This document shows positions 315 to 56,817 of a DNA stretch of 64,000 bases, piece by piece (the first letter of the stretch is position 1; every line of letters starts with the position of its first letter). Origin of the DNA: an uncultured Eubacteriales bacterium (GTDB lineage: Bacteria > Bacillota > Clostridia > Christensenellales > UBA1242); assembly GCA_949001935.1 (NCBI GenBank), contig CARJLX010000001.1, forward strand, positions 67,231 through 131,230, read 5' to 3'. The translations under genes and the position numbers were made by a program. Below the pieces are notes generated by a model. That model worked only from the letters and a program-made list of their open reading frames with translations, searched no databases and was not told where the DNA came from.

Positions 315-1610
315 ATGAATTATTCACCAAGACAGGTTGTTGACGAACTTGATAAATATATTGTTGGACAATCTAAGGCAAAGCGTGCTGTTGCTATTGC
401 CCTTAGAAATAGATATAGAAGAAGTCAACTTGCAAAAGAACTTAGAGAAGAAATTACTCCTAAAAATATTATTATGCGTGGGCCAACAGGCGTTGGTAAA
501 ACTGAAATTGCAAGACGCCTTGCAAAACTTGTTAAAGCACCTTTCATCAAAATTGAAGCTACAAAATATACAGAAGTTGGTTATGTTGGCAGAGATGTTG
601 AAAGCATGGTTAGAGATTTAGTAGAAGTTTCTGTTCGTCTTGTTAAGGACGAAAAGGCTCATGAAATGGAAGCGAAAGTAGCACCAACAGTTGAAAATCG
701 CATTGTTGACGCAATATGTGACACGCTTCGTGCCCAAGATCAACAAGTTGACCGAAATCAAATTGTAGAGGAATATCGTCAGGGTAAACTTGACAATATG
801 ACAATTGACATTATGGTTCAAGAAACTGCAAAGCCTATGCTTGCTATTGGTGGGCCAGGAATTGATTTAGGCTCTATGTTTGATGGCATCATGCCAGCCA
901 AACGCAAAAAGAGAAAAATGCCGGTTGCAAGAGCAAAAGAAGTTGTGACAGGTGAAGAATGCGAACGCATTATTGATAACGACAATGTTAATGCCGAAGC
1001 GATTCGCCGTGCAGAGGAAGAAGGAATTATTTTTATTGATGAAATTGACAAGATAATTGGCAAGGGTGGGACAAACAATTCTCAAGATGTATCAAGAGAA
1101 GGTGTACAAAGAGATATTTTGCCTATCGTTGAAGGTAGTACAGTTTCAACTAAGTATGGCAATGTAAAAACCGACTTTATTCTCTTTATTGCTTCAGGAG
1201 CCTTCCATGTTTCTAGAATTGAAGATATGATTCCAGAACTTCAAGGTCGTTTTCCAATTCGCGTGGATCTTGAAAATCTTACTAAGGAAGATTTTAAGAA
1301 GATTTTGGCTGAAACCAAAAATTCTCTTATCTTCCAGTATTCAAGTATTTTAAAGGTTGACAATATTGACCTTAAATTCACAGATGACGCTCTAGATGAA
1401 ATTGCTGAAATGGCGGTTGCTGAAAATGAGACTAGCGAAAATATAGGAGCAAGACGCTTGCATACAATTATGGAAATGCTTCTCGAAGATATTTCTTTCA
1501 ATGCATCAGGTGATCATCCAATGCTTGAAGTAAAGATTGACCGTGCTTATGTTCAAAACGCTTTCAAAGAAACTAAGAAGAAGTTTGATTTGAAAAAATA
1601 TGTTTTGTAG
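315..1610 (+). CDS. hslU: ATP-dependent protease ATPase subunit HslU
   Basis: 431 aa with Walker A GPTGVGKTEIARRLAK and Walker B IIFIDEIDK. It pairs with hslV in the classic arrangement. Confidence 0.95.
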   Translation: MNYSPRQVVDELDKYIVGQSKAKRAVAIALRNRYRRSQLAKELREEITPKNIIMRGPTGVGKTEIARRLAKLVKAPFIKIEATKYTEVGYVGRDVESMVRDLVEVSVRLVKDEKAHEMEAKVAPTVENRIVDAICDTLRAQDQQVDRNQIVEEYRQGKLDNMTIDIMVQETAKPMLAIGGPGIDLGSMFDGIMPAKRKKRKMPVARAKEVVTGEECERIIDNDNVNAEAIRRAEEEGIIFIDEIDKIIGKGGTNNSQDVSREGVQRDILPIVEGSTVSTKYGNVKTDFILFIASGAFHVSRIEDMIPELQGRFPIRVDLENLTKEDFKKILAETKNSLIFQYSSILKVDNIDLKFTDDALDEIAEMAVAENETSENIGARRLHTIMEMLLEDISFNASGDHPMLEVKIDRAYVQNAFKETKKKFDLKKYVL

Positions 1611-2861: not shown

Positions 2862-3170
2862 ATGGAAGTATTAAACTCAAAAAATTTTGAGGAGCAAACA
2901 AAGAAGGGCATTGTGGTTGTTGACTTTTTTGCAACTTGGTGTGGCCCTTGCAGAATGATGGCACCAGTCCTCGAAGAAGTTCAAGAAGAATTAGGTGACA
3001 AGGTTAAAATTTTTAAGGTTGATGTTGACGAAAGCGAAGCTTTAGCACGTAAGTTTGGCGTTATGATGATACCAACAATGGTTATCTTTGAAAATGGTGA
3101 AGTGCGCGACAAGCATATAGGGTTATGGCAAAAAGACGATATGCTCGACCAAATCAAATCTTATTTATAA
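2862..3170 (+). CDS. trxA: Thioredoxin
   Basis: 102 aa with the WCGPC active site. Confidence 0.93.
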   Translation: MEVLNSKNFEEQTKKGIVVVDFFATWCGPCRMMAPVLEEVQEELGDKVKIFKVDVDESEALARKFGVMMIPTMVIFENGEVRDKHIGLWQKDDMLDQIKSYL

Positions 3171-3185
3171 GCGTTGCACTACTAT

Positions 3186-3217
3186 AAAAAAAGAGATTGT
3201 TTAAATCTCTCTTTTTT
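3186..3217. terminator. Bidirectional intrinsic terminator between trxA and the convergent gene
   Basis: Hairpin AGAGATT-gtttaa-AATCTCT with an A-run on the left and a T-run on the right. Confidence 0.6.
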
Positions 3218-6963: not shown

Positions 6964-7232
6964 ACCGAGCTAGATGGGGAGTTAGCGGTGCCCTGTACCT
7001 GCAATCCGCTATAGCAGGGTTGACGATTTGTTTCGGTTTAAACTTTTTAAAAATGTGCGATTATTTTTAATGTTGAAGTCAAGGTCTTATGCAAGTAAAA
7101 TCTATGAACCAGGTCAGAGCCTGACGGCAGCATCCTTAAGTGGACACTTTACTGTGCCATAGGGAAGCTTTGGTGGAGTTAAAATTAGTCGAGGCAGTTG
7201 GGAAGTTTTTATCAACGCAAATTGCTCGGGCT
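6964..7232 (+). ncRNA. ffs: Signal recognition particle RNA, long Bacillus type with Alu domain (scRNA)
   Basis: GGGGAGTTAGCGGTGCCCTGTACCTGCAATCCGCTATAGCAGGG nearly matches the B. subtilis scRNA Alu-domain sequence as I remember it. The domain IV-like segment is ATGAACCAGGTCAG...GGCAGCA..TTAAGTG. The 5' CCGAGC pairs with the 3' GCTCGG, and the gene has its own promoter and terminator. Confidence 0.85.
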
Positions 7233-7340: not shown

Positions 7341-7559
7341 TTATTCAAAATCCGTATTCCCTAATAAATAATCAGCAGAAGTTTGTAAAATTTTACAAAG
7401 TTGAAGAATAGATTTAATATCTGGCTCTTTTAAACCACGCTCCCAAGCAGAAATATAGGCTTGCGTATAGCCCAACATTTTTGCTAAATCTTTTTGTAGG
7501 AGTTTGCTTTGTTGTCTTAATTCTCTTAACCTTTCTGAAAATGTGTTATTTGTATTCAT
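7341..7559 (-). CDS. XRE-family HTH protein, 72 aa (paralog 1 of 3)
   Basis: Cro/CI-type HTH pattern F.ERL.ELR....Q..LA..LG......S.WE.G...P; C-terminus is DYLLGNTDFE. Confidence 0.85.
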   Translation of the reverse strand: MNTNNTFSERLRELRQQSKLLQKDLAKMLGYTQAYISAWERGLKEPDIKSILQLCKILQTSADYLLGNTDFE

Positions 7560-7562
7560 ATT

Positions 7563-7781
7563 TTATTCAAAATTTGTTTTTCCTAATAAATAATCTAATG
7601 ATGTATCTAAAATATAACTAAGTTGTAATAAAACATCAAAAGATGGTTCTCTTGTACCAAGTTCCCAGCCAGAAACAGCGGCTTGTTTAAAACCTGTCAA
7701 TTTACCTAGTTGTGTTTGAGTTATCTTTTTTTCTTCCCTAAGTTCTTTTAGTCTTTCAGGAAATTTATTTTTGTATTTCAT
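7563..7781 (-). CDS. XRE-family HTH protein, 72 aa (paralog 2 of 3)
   Basis: Same length and architecture as 7341-7559, ending DYLLGKTNFE. Only 3 nt separate it from paralog 1. Confidence 0.85.
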   Translation of the reverse strand: MKYKNKFPERLKELREEKKITQTQLGKLTGFKQAAVSGWELGTREPSFDVLLQLSYILDTSLDYLLGKTNFE

Positions 7782-7836
7782 AAATTTATGATACTACAAT
7801 CTGTTATATTTAAACCAAGTAACGCAAATTGCGTTA

Positions 7837-8055
7837 TTATTCAAAATTTGTTCTACCAATTAAGTAATCCGAAGTTGTTTTAAGTATCTCACATAGTTTG
7901 ATAAGAGAATCTAAATTTGGCTGTCGAGTTCCACCTTCCCAACAGGCGATAGTGGACTGTTTACAATTCAAAAATTTTCCCAACTCTTTTTGTGTGAGGG
8001 GAATTTGATTTCTTAGTTCTTTCAATCGCTCTGGAAACTTGTTTAGTTTATTCAT
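7837..8055 (-). CDS. XRE-family HTH protein, 72 aa (paralog 3 of 3)
   Basis: I moved the start to ATG 8055 (ORF track 8130). This gives MNKLNKFPERLKELR... and the same 72-aa length as the paralogs, ending DYLIGRTNFE. Confidence 0.8.
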   Translation of the reverse strand: MNKLNKFPERLKELRNQIPLTQKELGKFLNCKQSTIACWEGGTRQPNLDSLIKLCEILKTTSDYLIGRTNFE

Positions 8056-8136
8056 AAAAAAAATATAATGCAAATTGTAGTAAGGATTACAACAATTGCA
8101 TTTTGCAATATTTTTATAAAAAGATTGCAAATTAGA

Positions 8137-43840: not shown

Positions 43841-43891
43841 TCTAAATCAAACAAAAAGCTGAGAAAATTTTCTCAGTTTTTTGTTTGATTA

Positions 43892-44101
43892 TTATTCTTC
43901 TCTTCCTAATAAATAATCTGTTGTCACTTTATAAAAATCGGCTAGTTTACACAACATTTCTAATGATGGTTCTCTATCACCTGTTTCATATTTGCCGTAA
44001 GTTGATCTTGAAATATTCAAAAAATCAGCAACATCTTGTTGCGAATATTCATTCTCTTTTCTAAGTTCTTTCAATATTCTTGAAATTTTCAATAAAATCA
44101 T
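43892..44101 (-). CDS. XRE-family HTH regulator (69 aa)
   Basis: Start set at MILLKISRILKELRKENEYSQQDVADFLNISRSTYGKYE; C-terminus is DYLLGREE. Confidence 0.8.
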   Translation of the reverse strand: MILLKISRILKELRKENEYSQQDVADFLNISRSTYGKYETGDREPSLEMLCKLADFYKVTTDYLLGREE

Positions 44102-51254: not shown

Positions 51255-51632
51255 ATGCCTACAATTAATCAATTGGTTCGCAATGGCAGAAAAACTTTTG
51301 ATAAAAAATCAAAAGCTCCACTTCTTGAAGAAAACCCTCAAAGAAGAGGTGTTTGTCTTTCAGTTAGAACTGCTACACCTAAAAAACCTAACTCAGCTCT
51401 TCGTAAGATTGCCAGAGTTAAATTAACAAATGGTTTTGAAGGTACTTGCTACATTCCTGGCGTAGGTCATAACTTGCAAGAACACAGTGTTGTTCTTATC
51501 CGTGGTGGAAGAGTTAAAGACTTGCCTGGTGTGCGTTATCATATTGTTCGTGGAACTCTTGATACAGCCGGTGTTGTAAACAGAAAGCAAAGCCGTTCTA
51601 AGTATGGTGCTAAACGACCAAAAAGCAAGTAG
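51255..51632 (+). CDS. rpsL: 30S ribosomal protein S12
   Basis: 125 aa beginning [13 protein letters not shown], with ...[10 protein letters not shown].... Confidence 0.97.
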
Positions 51633-51652
51633 AAAATAATTTGAAATGTGGG

Positions 51653-51727
51653 CTTCTTATTAAATAAATTAATTTTCTCGCTGGTTGTTTCTCAAAGGCT
51701 TCAAAAATTAACTTATTTAATAAGAAG
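51653..51727. repeat. 24-bp inverted repeat (one mismatch) forming a long hairpin in the rpsL-rpsG spacer
   Basis: CTTCTTATTAAATAAATTAATTTT (51653-51676) pairs with AAAATTAACTTATTTAATAAGAAG (51704-51727), leaving a 27-nt loop. Confidence 0.7.
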
Positions 51728-51879
51728 AAAAGAAAATTCATTTTATTAAAATTTTTAGTGAAGTGAATATTTGAGGATATTGCAATTTCAAATTATTATA
51801 AAAAAGAAAAAAGAAAAAGTGGATGATCCACAAAAAAATGACTTATGTGTTAATTTAACACTGCAAAAGGAGGATAATT

Positions 51880-52353
51880 ATGCCAAGAAGAAATAGTGCG
51901 GTTAAAAAAGATGTTCTTGTAGATCCAATTTATAATAGCAAGGTTGTGACTAAACTTGTAAATCAAGTTATGCTTGATGGAAAGAAAGGTCTTGCTCAAA
52001 GAATCGTTTATGGAGCATTTGATATTATTAAAGAAAAGATGGGTGCTGACCCAATGGAAGTTTTTACAACTGCCCTTGAAAATGTTAAACCTGTTCTTGA
52101 AACAAAATCAAGAAGAGTAGGTGGTGCTACTTACCAAGTTCCTATGGAAATCAGACCTGAAAGACGCCAAACTCTTGCAATCCGTTGGATTGTAGATTTC
52201 TCTAGAAAGAGATCTGCTGAAAGAGGAATGGACGCTAAACTTGCAGGCGAAATTATGGACGCTTACAATTCTACTGGTTCATCTATCAAAAGAAGAGATG
52301 AAATGCACAGAATGGCTGAAGCTAACAAGGCGTTTGCTCATTACAAGTGGTAA
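51880..52353 (+). CDS. rpsG: 30S ribosomal protein S7
   Basis: 157 aa beginning [28 protein letters not shown].... Confidence 0.97.
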
Positions 52354-52541
52354 TTCGCGGGGACAACTAGAATTTCTTTACGCGGGCACGGCTGTCGCCT
52401 AACCACTAAAATTCGTTTTCCCACGCGTGCCTCTTTCCGCCTCTTGAAAAATTCCGCTGGACATTTTTCTGCGAGAGTAGTGGCAATCAAATTTTTAGGG
52501 TCGGGCAAAGCCCTTCTTCCCATAAAAATTTTATTGCGATT
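52354..52541 (+). repeat. Structured intergenic repeat, copy A (after rpsG)
   Basis: It shares long blocks with copy C: GGACAACTAGAATTT, CTAAAATTCGTTTTCCCA, CTTGAAAAATTCCGCTGGACATTTTTC and CAAATTTTTAGGGTCGGGCAAAGCCCTTCTTCCCATAAAAATTT. Confidence 0.8.
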
Positions 52542-52602
52542 AGAAAGAAAAGGGGATTTGCAAAATTCTAAGCCTTATATATAAGGTTGAAAGAGGGAAA
52601 TT

Positions 52603-52800
52603 ATGGAAAATAAAGAAAAAGTCCAAAATGTAAGCGATTTAGTTGATAAAATGCTTAATAATGGACAAGTAAAAAGCGAAAAAACTACAAAGCCTGTTGA
52701 AGAATTACCAGATGGTTCAGTAGGAAAGGTTTTAGTAAACTTTTTATTAAAAGAAGATGTTTCTCCAACTAAAATTATTTTTGGGGAGAAAGATAATTAA
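52603..52800 (+). CDS. Small hypothetical protein (65 aa) between rpsG and fusA
   Basis: RBS AGAGGGA lies 6 nt before the ATG. The protein is hydrophilic, and I recognised no family. Confidence 0.35.
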   Translation: MENKEKVQNVSDLVDKMLNNGQVKSEKTTKPVEELPDGSVGKVLVNFLLKEDVSPTKIIFGEKDN

Positions 52801-52854
52801 AAGTGTTTAACTTCACTTTAAAAAGTTAAAATTTATTAAAAGGAAAAAATTATT

Positions 52855-54930
52855 ATGGCTAATGATTTACACATGACTAGAAATGTTGGTATCATGGCTC
52901 ACATTGATGCTGGTAAAACTACCACAACTGAGCGTATCCTTTATTACACTGGCAAGAGCCACAAAATCGGTGAAGTTCACGATGGCGCTGCCACAATGGA
53001 CTGGATGGCTCAAGAACAAGAAAGAGGTATTACTATTACTTCTGCTTGTACTACTTGCCAATGGAAAGGTCACAAGATTAACATCATTGATACTCCTGGA
53101 CACGTTGACTTCACAATCGAAGTTGAACGTTCATTGAAGGTTCTTGATGGTGCAGTTCTTGTTCTTTCTGCTCGTGATAAAGTTCAACCTCAAACTGAAA
53201 CAGTTTGGCGTCAAGCAACTAAGTATCATGTTCCAACTATTATCTATGTTAACAAAATGGATAGAGATGCCGCAGACTTTTTTGCCTGCCTTGAGTCTAT
53301 TGAAAGAAGACTTAAAACTCCAACTCTTGCCATTCAAATGCCTGTTGGTGAGGCTGATACATTCTCTGGAATTATCGACCTTATGACCATGAAGGCTGAA
53401 ATTTACAAAGATGATATGGGTACTCAAATTGAAATTACCGAAATCCCTGCTGAACTTAAAGATAAAGCTCAACAATATCATGATAAAATGATTGAACAAA
53501 TCGTTGAAACTGATGATGCTTTACTTGAAAAGTATTTTGGTGGCGAAGAAATTTCAATGGATGAACTTAAAAAAGCTCTTAGAAAGGGTACTATTGCAAA
53601 AACTTTCACTCCTGTTCTTTGCGGTTCTTCTTATAAGAACAAGGGTGTTCAAATGTTATTGGATGCTATGGTTGATTATCTTCCATCTCCACTTGACATT
53701 CCTGCAATCAAAGGTGTAAACCCTGACACTGAAGAGCAAGAAGAAAGAAATGCAGATGAAACTGCACCTCTTGCTGGTCTTGCTTTTAAGATTATGAATG
53801 ACCCATATGTTGGAGGTTTAACATTCTTCCGTGTTTACTCTGGTAAACTTACAGCAGGAAGCTATGTTTATAACTCAAACACTGGTAAACAAGAACGCGT
53901 TGGTCGTTTGATCCGTATGCACGCAAACAACCGTCAAGAAATCACTGAGGTTGGTGCAGGTGATATTGCTGCTATTGTTGGACTTAAAGATACTATCACA
54001 GGACATACTCTTTGTGATGAAAAACATCCAATTCAACTTGAATCTATGCAATTCCCAGAGCCTGTTATTCAACTTGCTATTGAGCCTAAAACTAAAGATA
54101 TGCAAGAAAAGATGTCTATTGGTCTTGGCAGACTTATGAGAGAAGATCCTTCTTTCAGAGTGACTACAAACCAAGAAACTGGACAAACTCTTATTGCTGG
54201 TATGGGTGAACTTCACCTTGAAATTATCGTTGATCGTCTTCTTCGTGAATTCAAGGTAGAAGCTAAGGTTGGTGAACCTCAAGTTTCTTATCGTGAAGCT
54301 CTTAAAAAACCTGTTAAAGCAGAAGGTAAATTCATCCGTCAAAGCGGTGGTAAAGGTCAATATGGTCACTGCGTGATTGAACTTGAACCATTGCCAGCTG
54401 GTAGCGGTTATGAATTTGTAGATAAAACTGTTGGTGGTTCTATTCCAAAAGAATATATTCAACCAATCAACAATGGTATTCAAGAAGCTTCTCACAATGG
54501 TGTAGTTGCAGGTTATGATACTGTTGACTTTAGAGTTACAGTTATTGATGGTTCTTACCATGAAGTTGACTCTTCTGAAATGGCGTTCAAGATTGCTGGT
54601 TCTATGGCTTTCCAAGATGGTGCTAAGAAGGCAGACCCTGTTCTTCTCGAGCCTATCATGAAGGTGACTGTTGAAGTCCCAGATGAATATCTTGGAACAG
54701 TTATGGGTAACCTCACTTCTCGTCGTGGTATGCTTACAGGAACTGAAAGCTCTGCAGGAATTCAAATTGTTAATGCAGAAGTTCCACTTGCTGAAATGTT
54801 TGGTTATGCTACTGACCTTCGTTCTCAAACTCAAGGTCGTGGAAACTATGTTATGGAACCATTGAAATATCAAGAAGTTCCTCGTTCAATTGCTCAAAAT
54901 ATTATTTCTGCAAGGGCTAAGAAAGACTAA
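52855..54930 (+). CDS. fusA: Elongation factor G
   Basis: 691 aa with G1 motif AHIDAGKTT and DTPGHVDF. Confidence 0.97.
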
Positions 54931-54931
54931 A

Positions 54932-55075
54932 AGGCAAGGACAACTAGAATTTTAACGGCGACAGGGCACTTTGTGCCTAACGCTTAACTTTCGGTTTCCC
55001 GTCCCAATCTCCCTCCAATTAAGGTTGCAAAATCGAACACATGATTTTCGATTGTTGCGTTTCTATAGGAGGAAT
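54932..55075 (+). repeat. Structured intergenic repeat, copy B (after fusA; divergent or partial)
   Basis: It starts AAGGACAACTAGAATTTTAACGGCGACAGGGCAC...TTAACTTTCGGTTTCCCG, matching the 5' module of copies A and C. It then diverges into its own hairpin AATCGAA...TTCGATT. Confidence 0.6.
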
Positions 55076-55268
55076 CAGAAGGTTGTTATTTAAAACTACT
55101 ATATATAGTTGAAAAACTATATAAAAGCGGCATAAGAGTACAAAAATTCTCTTGGCTATAGCAAAATATTGCTAAAAAATTAAAAAATTTTGCAAAATCA
55201 TTTTGAAAATATTTTTAAATATGTTAAAATGATAGCGTAAATAAAAAATTAAAGGAGATTTAAAAATT

Positions 55269-56471
55269 ATGGCACAAGGTGTATTTAACAGAAATAAACC
55301 ACACGTTAACATCGGTACTATTGGTCACGTTGACCATGGTAAAACCACTTTGACCGCTGCTATTACTATGACATTAGCACTTAAAGGTCAAGCTCAAAAA
55401 ATGAGATATGACGAAATCGACAAAGCCCCAGAAGAAAAGGCTAGAGGTATTACTATTAATACTGCTCACGTTGAATACGAAACAGCAAATCGTCACTACG
55501 CTCACGTAGACTGCCCAGGACACGCTGACTACGTTAAAAACATGATTACTGGTGCTGCACAAATGGACGGAGCTATCCTCGTTGTTGCATCAACAGATGG
55601 TCCTATGCCTCAAACAAGAGAGCATATTCTTCTTGCTAGACAAGTAGGTGTTCCATACATCGTTGTCTTCATGAACAAAACTGATCAAGTTGACGATCCT
55701 GAACTTCTTGAACTTGTTGAGATGGAAATCCGTGACCTTCTTTCTAAATATGATTTCCCAGGAGATACAACTCCTATTATTAAGGGTTCTGCTTTAAAAG
55801 CATTAGAAGCTGCTCAAGCTGGAAACGCTGATGATCCTGCTTGCAAATGCATTTTCGAACTTATGGATGCAGTTGATTCTTACATCCCTGAGCCTGCTCG
55901 TGAAATCGACAAACCTTTCCTTATGCCTGTTGAAGATGTATTCACAATCACAGGTCGTGGAACTGTTGCTACTGGTAGAGTAGAAAGAGGACAAGTTAAA
56001 GTTAACGATACAGTTGAAATCGTTGGTCTTGGCGCTAACAAAACTACAGTTATTACTGGCGTTGAAATGTTCCACAAATCACTTGATGCTGCTATGGCTG
56101 GTGATAATGCTGGACTTCTTCTTCGTGGTGTTCAAAGAAACGAAATCGAAAGAGGACAAGTTCTTTGCAAACCTGGTTCAATTCACCCTCACACTAAATT
56201 TAATGCAGAAGTTTATGTATTGAAGAAGGAAGAAGGTGGTCGTCATACTCCATTCTTCAATGGTTATAGACCTCAATTCTTCATTAGAACTTGTGATATC
56301 ACAGGTGTTATCGAACTTGAAAAGGGTGTAGAAATGGTTATGCCTGGAGATAACGTTCGTATGACTATCTCTCTTATCAACCCTGTAGCCGTTGAACAAG
56401 GTATGCGTTTCGCTATCCGTGAAGGCGGAAGAACAGTTGGTTCTGGTGTTGTTTCTTCAGTTATTGAATAA
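55269..56471 (+). CDS. tuf: Elongation factor Tu
   Basis: 400 aa with GHVDHGKTT and DCPGHADY. Confidence 0.97.
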
Positions 56472-56473
56472 GT

Positions 56474-56648
56474 CTCATAGGGACAAGTAGAATTCTGACG
56501 CGGACAAGACCGCTAAAATTCGTTTTTCCCATGAACCCTTTTTCGCTTCTTGAAAAATCCCGCTGGGCATTTTTCGTCGAGTAAGGTGGCAAACAAATTT
56601 TTAGGGTCGGGCAAAGCTCTTCTTCCCATAAAAATTTGATTGCGAATT
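56474..56648 (+). repeat. Structured intergenic repeat, copy C (after tuf)
   Basis: GGACAAGTAGAATTC ... CTAAAATTCGTTTTTCCCA ... CTTGAAAAATCCCGCTGGGCATTTTTC ... CAAATTTTTAGGGTCGGGCAAAGCTCTTCTTCCCATAAAAATTT. Confidence 0.8.
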
Positions 56649-56780
56649 TAAAATAGAAATAAAAACACAAGACGCTTTGCGTCTATAAATAAAATATTAG
56701 AAAATAAAACTTGTACATTTGGCGTTTATTTATCTTTTGATAGGTTTTTGCGATGTAAAATAAAAAAATATGCATATATA

Positions 56781-56817
56781 AATAAACATGCTTGTGGTTG
56801 GGCATGTTTATTTTTTA
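56781..56817. terminator. Hairpin terminator between tuf and the convergent acyltransferase gene
   Basis: Hairpin AAACATGC-ttgtggttgg-GCATGTTT followed by a T-run. Confidence 0.6.

Follow-up and report, generated by a model that had tools for sequence, protein, structure and literature searches.

The REP/BIME repeats of enterobacteria are transcribed extragenic hairpin repeats that lie mostly at the 3′ ends of genes or between cistrons and form mosaics with other motifs. They reportedly stabilise the upstream segment of the mRNA, and those within about 15 nucleotides (nt) of a stop codon are said to interfere with termination. Here we describe an element of about 190 nt found directly behind the stop codons of rpsG, fusA and tuf in the str operon of an uncultured Eubacteriales bacterium (GenBank assembly GCA_949001935.1, contig CARJLX010000001.1, positions 67,231 to 131,230 of the forward strand); this whole stretch of 64,000 nt is referred to below as the window, and coordinates are those of the window unless a related locus is named. 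A REP/BIME unit is a palindrome of about 35 nt headed by GTAG; such units number in the hundreds, occur in both orientations and are linked to RAYT transposases, whereas the element has three domains, no GTAG-headed unit and conserved unpaired nucleotides, is low-copy and almost always in sense orientation, and was seen with no RAYT.

Other described systems share some of its features. The bcr1, ERIC, Correia, RUP and BOX repeats fold as RNA and are co-transcribed with their neighbours, as the element probably is, but they are marked by terminal inverted repeats or a single long palindrome, by target duplications and by copy numbers in the tens to hundreds; the element has no terminal inverted repeats, one ambiguous candidate duplication and a low copy number. 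Integron attC sites likewise begin at or overlap the preceding stop codon, and are imperfect hairpins of 57–141 nt with AAC...GTT ends; the 5′ domain of the element (M1, about 70 nt) carries ...ACAAC / GUUUU..., and variable orphan open reading frames (ORFs) adjoin the copy behind rpsG (copy A). However, the attC core RYYYAAC and GTTRRRY is unmatched, in that the two ends of M1 are GGACAAC and GTTTTCC and only AAC and GTT fit, the remaining domains (M2 and M3) and the linker have no attC counterpart, and the hosts are core housekeeping genes rather than cassettes. No integrase was present in the flanking gene tables inspected. The intergenic bcr1 repeats are reportedly discussed with regard to mRNA decay in Bacillus cereus (PMC3446304). 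The element also resembles the motifs of the GC-rich-intergenic-region surveys of the Breaker laboratory, being GC-rich, covarying and intergenic in an AT-rich genome; the mobile or repeat category in that work is marked by inconsistent orientation and transposase association (PMC11109978), in contrast to the consistent orientation and stop-codon placement seen here. We found no description of the motif in the literature, although coverage was incomplete and this is weak evidence of novelty. By analogy, we favour the view that the element may work like REP/BIME or bcr1-type repeats, yet belongs to neither family.

A three-domain element behind rpsG, fusA and tuf

Copies A, B and C of the element (Table 1) are members of an undescribed family of structured RNA modules. 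An initial annotation, made from the letters of the window, had described a GC-richer repeat at the 3′ ends of rpsG, fusA and tuf, and alignment of the copies finds every one of its sequence blocks in place. The sequence GGACAASTAGAATT occurs exactly three times in the window, always within copies A, B and C, and allowing up to two mismatches gives six matches, against 1.28 expected by chance. A covariance model (R1) built from 19 family members scores copy A at 140.5 bits (over 52352–52487), copy C at 107.9 and copy B at 51, and a search of the 64 kb window with R1 and the filters off gave no fourth credible copy. The GC content of the elements is 0.41–0.46; that of the whole window is 0.33 and that of the rpsL-rpsG spacer 0.23. 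The spacers that hold copies A and B are 501 nt and 338 nt long and the 3′ untranslated region (UTR) behind tuf runs for about 340 nt to a terminator-like hairpin, whereas the spacers of relatives lacking the element are about 80–190 nt; both the GC enrichment and the inflated spacing that had been annotated are therefore real.

Copy C consists of M1 (56474–56534, without a tip hairpin), M2 (56546–56581) and M3 (56588–56643), and an identical copy is found in L001 (L numbers designate related loci). The 5′ part of copy A is identical in the independent contig L004. Copy B retains only M1 (54933–55004), M2 and M3 being replaced by an unrelated hairpin (55005–55095), in agreement with the annotated divergence after a shared 5′ module; its decayed status is based on alignment with the complete fusA-site copies of L001 and L005 and with the empty site of L059. 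Single-sequence folding recovers the three hairpin blocks proposed in the annotation, with z scores of −2.6 for copy A, −3.0 for copy C and −1.6 for copy B.

Of the three domains, M1 is a branched helix, M2 a hairpin and M3 a long hairpin whose tip is conserved. From its base, M1 rises through a variable basal stem (CGCG/CGCG), GGGACAAC/GUUUUCCC, a UA bulge and GAAUUU/AAAUUC to an asymmetric junction (UCUUAAC / UA), a 4-bp inner stem (GCGG/CCGC) and an internal loop (G-R-CAC / CUAA), above which is a tip hairpin whose length and sequence vary between copies. The tip of M3 is either GAG-C-GGGC-AAA-GCCC-U-UUC or GGGUCGGGC-AAA-GCCCUUCUUCCC, and a GCGAUU tail follows. Conserved unpaired nucleotides are found in ACG, G-R-CAC, CUAAC, CUAAAA and the linker CCCCUUUU, together with A-rich tip loops. 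Anti-Shine-Dalgarno-like pyrimidine tracts (CCUCUU and the linker) pair with a Shine-Dalgarno-like purine tract, GAGAGG, inside the element. The family alignment gave no convincing pseudoknot or additional covarying contact in M1–M2.

Table 1. Coordinates of the str-region features in the window, with sites of a second hairpin family in related loci
Feature	Coordinates	Strand	Remarks and basis
rpsL	51255..51632	+	
rpsG (S7)	51880..52353	+	Host of copy A; ORF list; Pfam Ribosomal_S7 on identical protein
Copy A, full element	52354..52546	+	Directly behind rpsG stop (ends 52353); GGACAAC from 52361
A-M1, branched 5′ domain	52356..52427	+	Pairs and covariation across family; inner stem GCGG/CCAC, internal loop GCAC/CUAA
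A-J, pyrimidine-rich linker, consensus CCCCUUUU	52428..52440	+	Conserved unpaired columns in two family alignments
A-M2, extended hairpin CUC..GAAAAAUUCC-GCU-GGA(C)AUUUUUC..GAG, tip UCC-GCU-GGA	52441..52475	+	Core-pair covariation
A-M3, AU-rich hairpin of ~20 bp	52482..52537	+	Tip GGGUCGGGC-AAA-GCCCUUCUUCCC; folds; stem pairing kept across loci
65-codon ORF	52603..52800	+	
fusA (EF-G)	52855..54930	+	Host of copy B; ORF list; Pfam domains on L001 orthologue
Copy B, decayed element	54931..55095	+	Behind fusA stop (ends 54930); GGACAAC from 54938
Promoter-like site for tuf, TTGAAA-16-TAAAAT with TG	55203..55230	+	Promoter scan; conserved in L001, L005, L059
tuf (EF-Tu)	55269..56471	+	Host of copy C; ORF list; Pfam domains on L001 orthologue
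Copy C, full element	56472..56652	+	Behind tuf stop (ends 56471); GGACAAG from 56481
Intrinsic-terminator-like hairpin and T run	56780..56813	+	Terminator scan; 3′ of copy C
Second hairpin family, L060	7475..7525		
Second hairpin family, L005	~7555..7605		
Second hairpin family, L063	~905..950		
Second hairpin family, L016 and L014			3′ of the element

The element carries no transcription signals of its own in the window. The terminator scan found no terminator-like site inside A, B or C, the nearest on the plus strand being the hairpin 3′ of copy C; M3 is followed by GCGAUU with no U run, and the element is not an intrinsic terminator. The sole promoter-like match touching a window copy is a weak one (9/12, 56464–56493) with its −35 hexamer in the coding end of tuf. 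A predicted tuf promoter 3′ of copy B and a predicted terminator 3′ of copy C suggest that the copies lie within transcribed spacer and 3′ UTR, consistent with the location in the str operon first proposed. If the tuf promoter is real, copy B would be at the 3′ end of the rpsL-rpsG-fusA transcript, and if the terminator is real, copy C would lie inside the tuf 3′ UTR.

The element matches no known RNA family, as the annotation had supposed. At the gathering score Rfam 15 finds only the signal recognition particle (SRP) RNA in the window and nothing on the element in nine related loci, and at E≤10 the region 51600–52900 yields no match on the element; there are no tRNAs in the window. Several resemblances were pursued and rejected. 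Mimicry of the sarcin-ricin loop by CGAGAGGA after M2 fails because its GAG pairs with CUC with covariation, leaving no GAGA tetraloop. An alternative pairing between CCGC of the M2 loop and GCGG of the M1 inner stem is contradicted by copies with a GGCG/CGCC stem that retain the same M2 loop, and a Chi-like AGCGG on the opposite strand is lost in these same variants. The ACAC/CUAA loop has no tandem G.A pairs and is not a kink-turn; we take its likeness to loops of the UAA/GAN type to be mere resemblance. A read-through extension of S7 (about 75 open codons follow the stop at copy A) is excluded by the varying frame of the element relative to the stop, with gaps of 2–10 nt between loci. Small minus-strand ORFs (52341–52523 and 56461–56670; 49 aa and 38 aa in L001) were also rejected, since their conservation tracks the base pairing and changes in the length of the M1 tip would break any reading frame.

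Distribution, covariation and placement of the family

Related copies were found at about 20 loci in uncultured low-GC gut Clostridia from mouse, rabbit and human, establishing the annotated repeat as a true family. A scan of one genome from each of 185,579 species with the pattern GGACAASTAGAATT-N15-45-TTCGKTTTYCC gave 14 loci in 12 metagenome-assembled genomes (MAGs; 12 species). A metagenome scan with a pattern for the M2 loop gave 31 matches, four of them true members (L030, L031, L042 and L049, in which M1 is more divergent) and the rest mostly due to chance. No matches were obtained with two patterns in viral contigs, or by blastn in plasmids and phages. Genomes carry one to three canonical copies, the exact pattern matching at most twice per MAG and once in the closest MAG (the MAGs being incomplete); the window has three copies, all in one operon. 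The S7 protein of the window recurs in metagenome contigs and its relatives are in uncultured Clostridia MAGs from human, rabbit and mouse gut. An exact look-up of EF-Tu returned no record. The element accounts for assembly breaks within the str operon in these genomes; contig L004, for example, ends inside the M2 loop.

The helices covary. In a MAFFT alignment of 19 copies, scored against 37 pairs of a structure drawn by the analyst, 94.4% of cells are paired, compared to 35–55% with the partners slid, and 18 of the 37 pairs have changed on both sides. An alignment of 26 copies fitted to the model gives 96.3% (34–56% when slid) and 28 compensatory pairs out of 37; this alignment is biased towards the model, but the independent MAFFT result agrees in direction. 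Compensatory counts as high as these were reached in none of 500 shuffles, and the slid controls give 4–10. All ten pairs of the M2 core are paired in 100% of cells and eight are compensatory, whereas the M3 stems diverge widely in sequence between loci with the pairing and tip motif maintained. The annotation had asked whether the differences between copies A and C compensate one another and had proposed a covariance model as a check; family-wide, by either alignment, they do, and the element is a structured functional RNA in the generic sense of having helices with compensatory changes above controls.

Copies at different genes are 75–88% identical. Comparing the window with L016 or L030, the identity of the element is 0.76–0.79, the changes including compensatory ones, while that of rpsG third codon positions is 0.61–0.66, which we read as near saturation. 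The element is thus under selection, or has been repeatedly renewed. M3 has 21 G-U pairs, among them a conserved G.U in GAG/UUC, and one A.C 1x1 mismatch, an excess that favours a sense-strand RNA.

Placement of the element is close to uniform. A same-strand ORF ends 2–10 nt before GGACAAC at 12 of the 14 genome-scan loci and at all three window copies, and over about 17 independent loci the distance from the stop codon to the basal stem is 0–6 nt. At the two other genome-scan loci (L021 and L024) the ORF ends in ...Gly-Asp-Asn-stop (GDN*) at the conserved UAG of the element itself. Sense copies are found at about 20 loci and antisense copies at two. S7 is upstream of the element in the window, L001, L059, L016 and L030, EF-G in the window, L001 and L005, and EF-Tu in the window and L001; RpoB, identified from its translation, is a further host. 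Pfam assignments add HPF, a sigma-70-family factor, Obg, an ABC transporter, SecY, TpiA (triosephosphate isomerase) and GroEL, and a C-terminal fragment read by eye is probably DnaK. A variant (type 2) copy in L031 is also behind a stop codon, that of a DnaD-like gene (Pfam). The hosts are enriched for the most abundant housekeeping messages, strikingly although not absolutely. The downstream neighbours vary between orphan ORFs, tuf, rpoC, adk, a convergent gene or nothing, showing that the element is not the 5′ leader (riboswitch, T-box or ribosomal-protein leader) of one gene family. An attenuator tuning the relative output of S7, EF-G and EF-Tu had been among the functions suggested, but the same module stands behind the stops of many unrelated genes elsewhere, which argues against an attenuator dedicated to these three.

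Copies are also duplicated, altered and lost. In L030 a canonical copy after rpsG is followed by 2.3 tandem variant copies. In L001 about 60 nt are identical between the rpsG and fusA copies, suggestive of gene conversion. L002 has an identical S7 protein and no element after rpsG, with two other ORFs in that place, and in L005 only a 20-nt stump is left after tuf. The fusA site of L059 is empty, reading GACTAAAACC|TAC where the window has TAAAA, 163 nt and TAAAA; in this single filled/empty pair, copy B thus has TAAAA at either end, against one TAAAA at the empty site. No target duplication is evident at copy A, and AATAA is present on both sides of copy C, albeit in AT-rich DNA. Since the window, L001 and L005 all have a fusA-site copy and L059 branches among them by S7 identity, deletion between the TAAAA repeats is at least as likely as insertion with target duplication, and probably likelier. 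The element behaves as a low-copy mosaic repeat that is occasionally duplicated or converted, is combined with other hairpin modules and is often lost by short-repeat deletion; loss or decay in L002, L005, L059 and window copy B shows that it is not essential at any one site.

Possible roles of the module

Our preferred reading, held tentatively and with rather less than even confidence, is that this is a cis-acting 3′-UTR or intercistronic module that stabilises or processes mRNA and is drawn from a low-copy mosaic repeat family. That it is transcribed together with its host gene, and that it stabilises or processes the message, are both inferences. The module would be read within the host mRNA as the sense strand, starting 0–6 nt after the stop, and behind the terminating ribosome it would fold into M1, then M2 after the linker, and then M3 with its A-rich tip. 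Such a compact fold could block 3′-to-5′ exonucleases, and the long M3 duplex may provide a defined cleavage site; the block and the cleavage together would stabilise the upstream cistron and uncouple, or insulate, it from the sequence downstream.

Several observations weigh against a stabilising role in cis. A tyrS T-box leader in L049 and L042 contains the element in antisense orientation, placed after Stem I and before the antiterminator, with a partial second copy adjoining the full one. The rpsG stop of L061 and L062 is followed by a 5′ fragment, and a full copy in antisense orientation immediately precedes the ribosome-binding site of fusA. In L063 and L064 (S7 99% identical) about 150 nt separate the element from the rpsG stop; two further hairpin modules lie in between, and the element begins directly after the ATG that opens a 92-codon ORF in L005. 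One variant copy, in L031, is immediately preceded by TTGACA-17-TAAAAT and by no ORF. Some hosts are outside the highly expressed class, namely OGG glycosylase (Pfam; L024), the ABC transporter, a putative P-type ATPase (a 673-aa ORF in L021, read by eye) and the DnaD-like protein. M1 and M2 are almost purely Watson-Crick, with 18 G-U pairs and 15 A.C, and because G-U is no commoner than A.C these stems are uninformative on the functional strand and a DNA-level role for the hairpins is possible. The module is, moreover, far more elaborate than a plain exonuclease block needs, with its three domains and conserved junction and loop nucleotides, and its tight spacing from the stop codon is not required of a stabiliser.

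Some of these unusual loci have further features. The tyrS T-box leader in L049 (1–530; in L042 about 2990–3210) has Stem I at 26–135 and the antiterminator at 452–492, and the gap of about 315 nt between them holds the one full and one partial antisense copy; a T-box identity for the element itself was rejected, the signal coming from this real leader on the other strand, into which the element is inserted. In L063 (about 1000–1030) a weak ribosome-binding site and ATG before the element would open a 7-codon mini-ORF into M1 (ATG GGG ACA ACT AGA ATT TTT TAA). In L031 (4850–5450) a non-coding stretch of about 600 nt 5′ of the variant element contains at least 10 TCCGCTC motifs about 35–100 nt apart, which resemble the M2 loop UCCGCU.

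The elaborate architecture and tight spacing, which a plain stabiliser leaves unexplained, keep more novel readings alive. A new class of complex-folded bacterial RNA, active through sitting at the stop codons of heavily translated messages, seems to us doubtful but worth stating; it may be a module, self-processing or RNase-guided, whose release gives the mRNA a defined 3′ end, or it may sense the terminating ribosome and so set the lifetime of mRNAs for the translation apparatus. A free-standing functional RNA (a ribozyme, a ribonucleoprotein component or a 3′-UTR-derived small RNA) that rides abundant transcripts and is released at the base of M1 by self-cleavage or a host RNase would fit the covarying stems of variable length, the conserved junction and internal-loop nucleotides, the A-rich tip loops and the enrichment of hosts for the most abundant mRNAs, with three copies in one operon. 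It would also suit the promoter-linked variant of L031 and the tandem variant arrays of L030, and with the M1 base at the stop codon a cut there would spare the ORF. We nonetheless regard it as unlikely: no known ribozyme or RNA family matches even at permissive thresholds, neither a pseudoknot nor further covarying contacts emerged in M1–M2, no partner protein was identified, and close relatives have lost copies to decay or deletion, apparently without compensation. Even less probable, and in our judgement quite improbable, is a termination-coupled regulator, in which a ribosome that occupies the stop codon opens roughly the first 10 nt of M1 and the fold reports translation of the upstream ORF to mRNA decay, Rho access or the next cistron, the attenuator idea included. 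The 0–6 nt spacing at about 17 independent loci, the two ORFs that end at the element's own UAG and the anti-Shine-Dalgarno-like tracts that pair with GAGAGG would all be expected of such a device. However, some copies are at operon ends with nothing downstream, such as copy C (the GroEL, DnaK and HPF loci are presumably similar ends, going by their usual operon structure), the genes that do lie downstream are mutually unrelated, other copies are far from a stop, antisense or equipped with their own promoter, and there is no family-wide alternative pairing, the linker partner AAAAGGGG being present in some copies only.

A quite different explanation is selfish repeated DNA of the REP/BIME or miniature inverted-repeat transposable element (MITE) kind, with hairpins that a trans-acting enzyme (a Y1 transposase or a RAYT-like protein, for example) would recognise as DNA, perhaps in single-stranded form, an RNA without function, and a placement that reflects tolerated insertion. 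The several copies per genome at unrelated genes are as this predicts, as are the antisense copies and the tandem arrays (L030 and L049), the mosaics with other hairpin modules (L063, L005 and L016), the differences in presence between close strains, the TAAAA on both flanks of copy B and the near-purely Watson-Crick stems of M1 and M2. The MITE-like repeat raised in the annotation is at best a loose description: local alignment of the first 45 nt with the reverse complement of the last 45 in four copies scores 5.0–5.5 (shuffle median 5.0, 95th percentile 7–7.5), so that terminal inverted repeats are not above chance; copy number is very low and no near-identical copies occur at unlinked loci. 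The gene tables and ORF lists inspected for some of the loci show no transposase, the 5–8 kb flanks not being checked systematically, and plasmids, phages and viral contigs have no matches. A selfish repeat would be expected to show numerous near-identical copies in either orientation and a transposase to match, and this combination does not appear to be present. At about 20 of 22 loci the element is in sense and directly adjoins a stop codon, a regularity beyond what tolerated random insertion would give, the unpaired nucleotides are strongly conserved, and the TAAAA case is simpler as a deletion in L059 by the S7 tree. We consider selfish DNA an unlikely account, to the same degree as the free-standing RNA, and return to a stabilising or processing module as the tentative choice.

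Neighbouring features and implications

The spacers around the element hold other conserved hairpins. A long AT-rich hairpin in the rpsL-rpsG spacer (51649–51730) shares its loop core, UCGCUGGUUG...CAAAGGCUU, with L001, L002 and L059, where the flanking stems differ in sequence and still pair; its Rfam matches are spurious and microRNA-like, and it could be a regulatory site of the str operon, such as a binding site for a ribosomal protein. Just 5′ of fusA (52803–52830) is a conserved leader hairpin, GUGUUUAACUUCACUUUAAAAAGUUAAA, for which two alternative hairpins look possible. Relatives keep the GUG..CAC..AAAAA frame and the stem covaries (UUUAACUU/AAGUUAAA versus UAUAAUCU/AGAUUAUA and GUUAUAAC/GGUUAUAA), and extra copies flank variable ORFs in L002, L005, L059 and L063. 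A second conserved hairpin family, GCCGCCAAACGAAAnCGC-loop-GCGnUUUGCGGCG, has covarying stems and is absent from the window; its sites in related loci are given in Table 1, and in L060 it starts 3 nt after the rpsG stop.

The 65-codon ORF between copy A and fusA is the sole member of its own cluster among 5.8 billion proteins, and neither Pfam nor PHROGs gives a family for the orphan ORFs beside copy A, this one included. The orphan ORF beside copy A was found only in gut metagenome contigs, one of them from mouse. Unrelated ORFs fill the same slot in relatives (92 aa in L001, 92 and 194 aa in L005, 196 and 103 aa in L002, and 148 aa in L030), and these differences mark the rpsG-fusA spacer as a hot spot for small variable genes in a core operon.

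Elsewhere in the window, positions 6965–7229 encode a large bacterial SRP RNA (164 bits). Three tandem paralogous small genes of 72, 72 and 97 aa, resembling helix-turn-helix regulators, are on the minus strand at 7341–8130, with a fourth related segment at 43884–44089. The palindrome CTTTTCTTT(T/A)AAAGAAAAG is found at several gene ends (15615, 23263, 36929, 43797 and 47361), and may form shared bidirectional terminator hairpins.

Transcribed intergenic repeats are already known, and what is new here is a family with unusual placement rules. It combines a large three-domain covarying RNA, a very low copy number, a near-constant placement at stop codons, a preference for abundant messages, and conservation across lineages whose synonymous sites look saturated. 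Should the module control how 3′ ends are stabilised or processed, an uncultured gut clade would have in it a portable expression module of general use, and it would be a candidate part for Firmicutes engineering, and if it proves to be a ribozyme or a sensor of the terminating ribosome it would represent a new RNA class.

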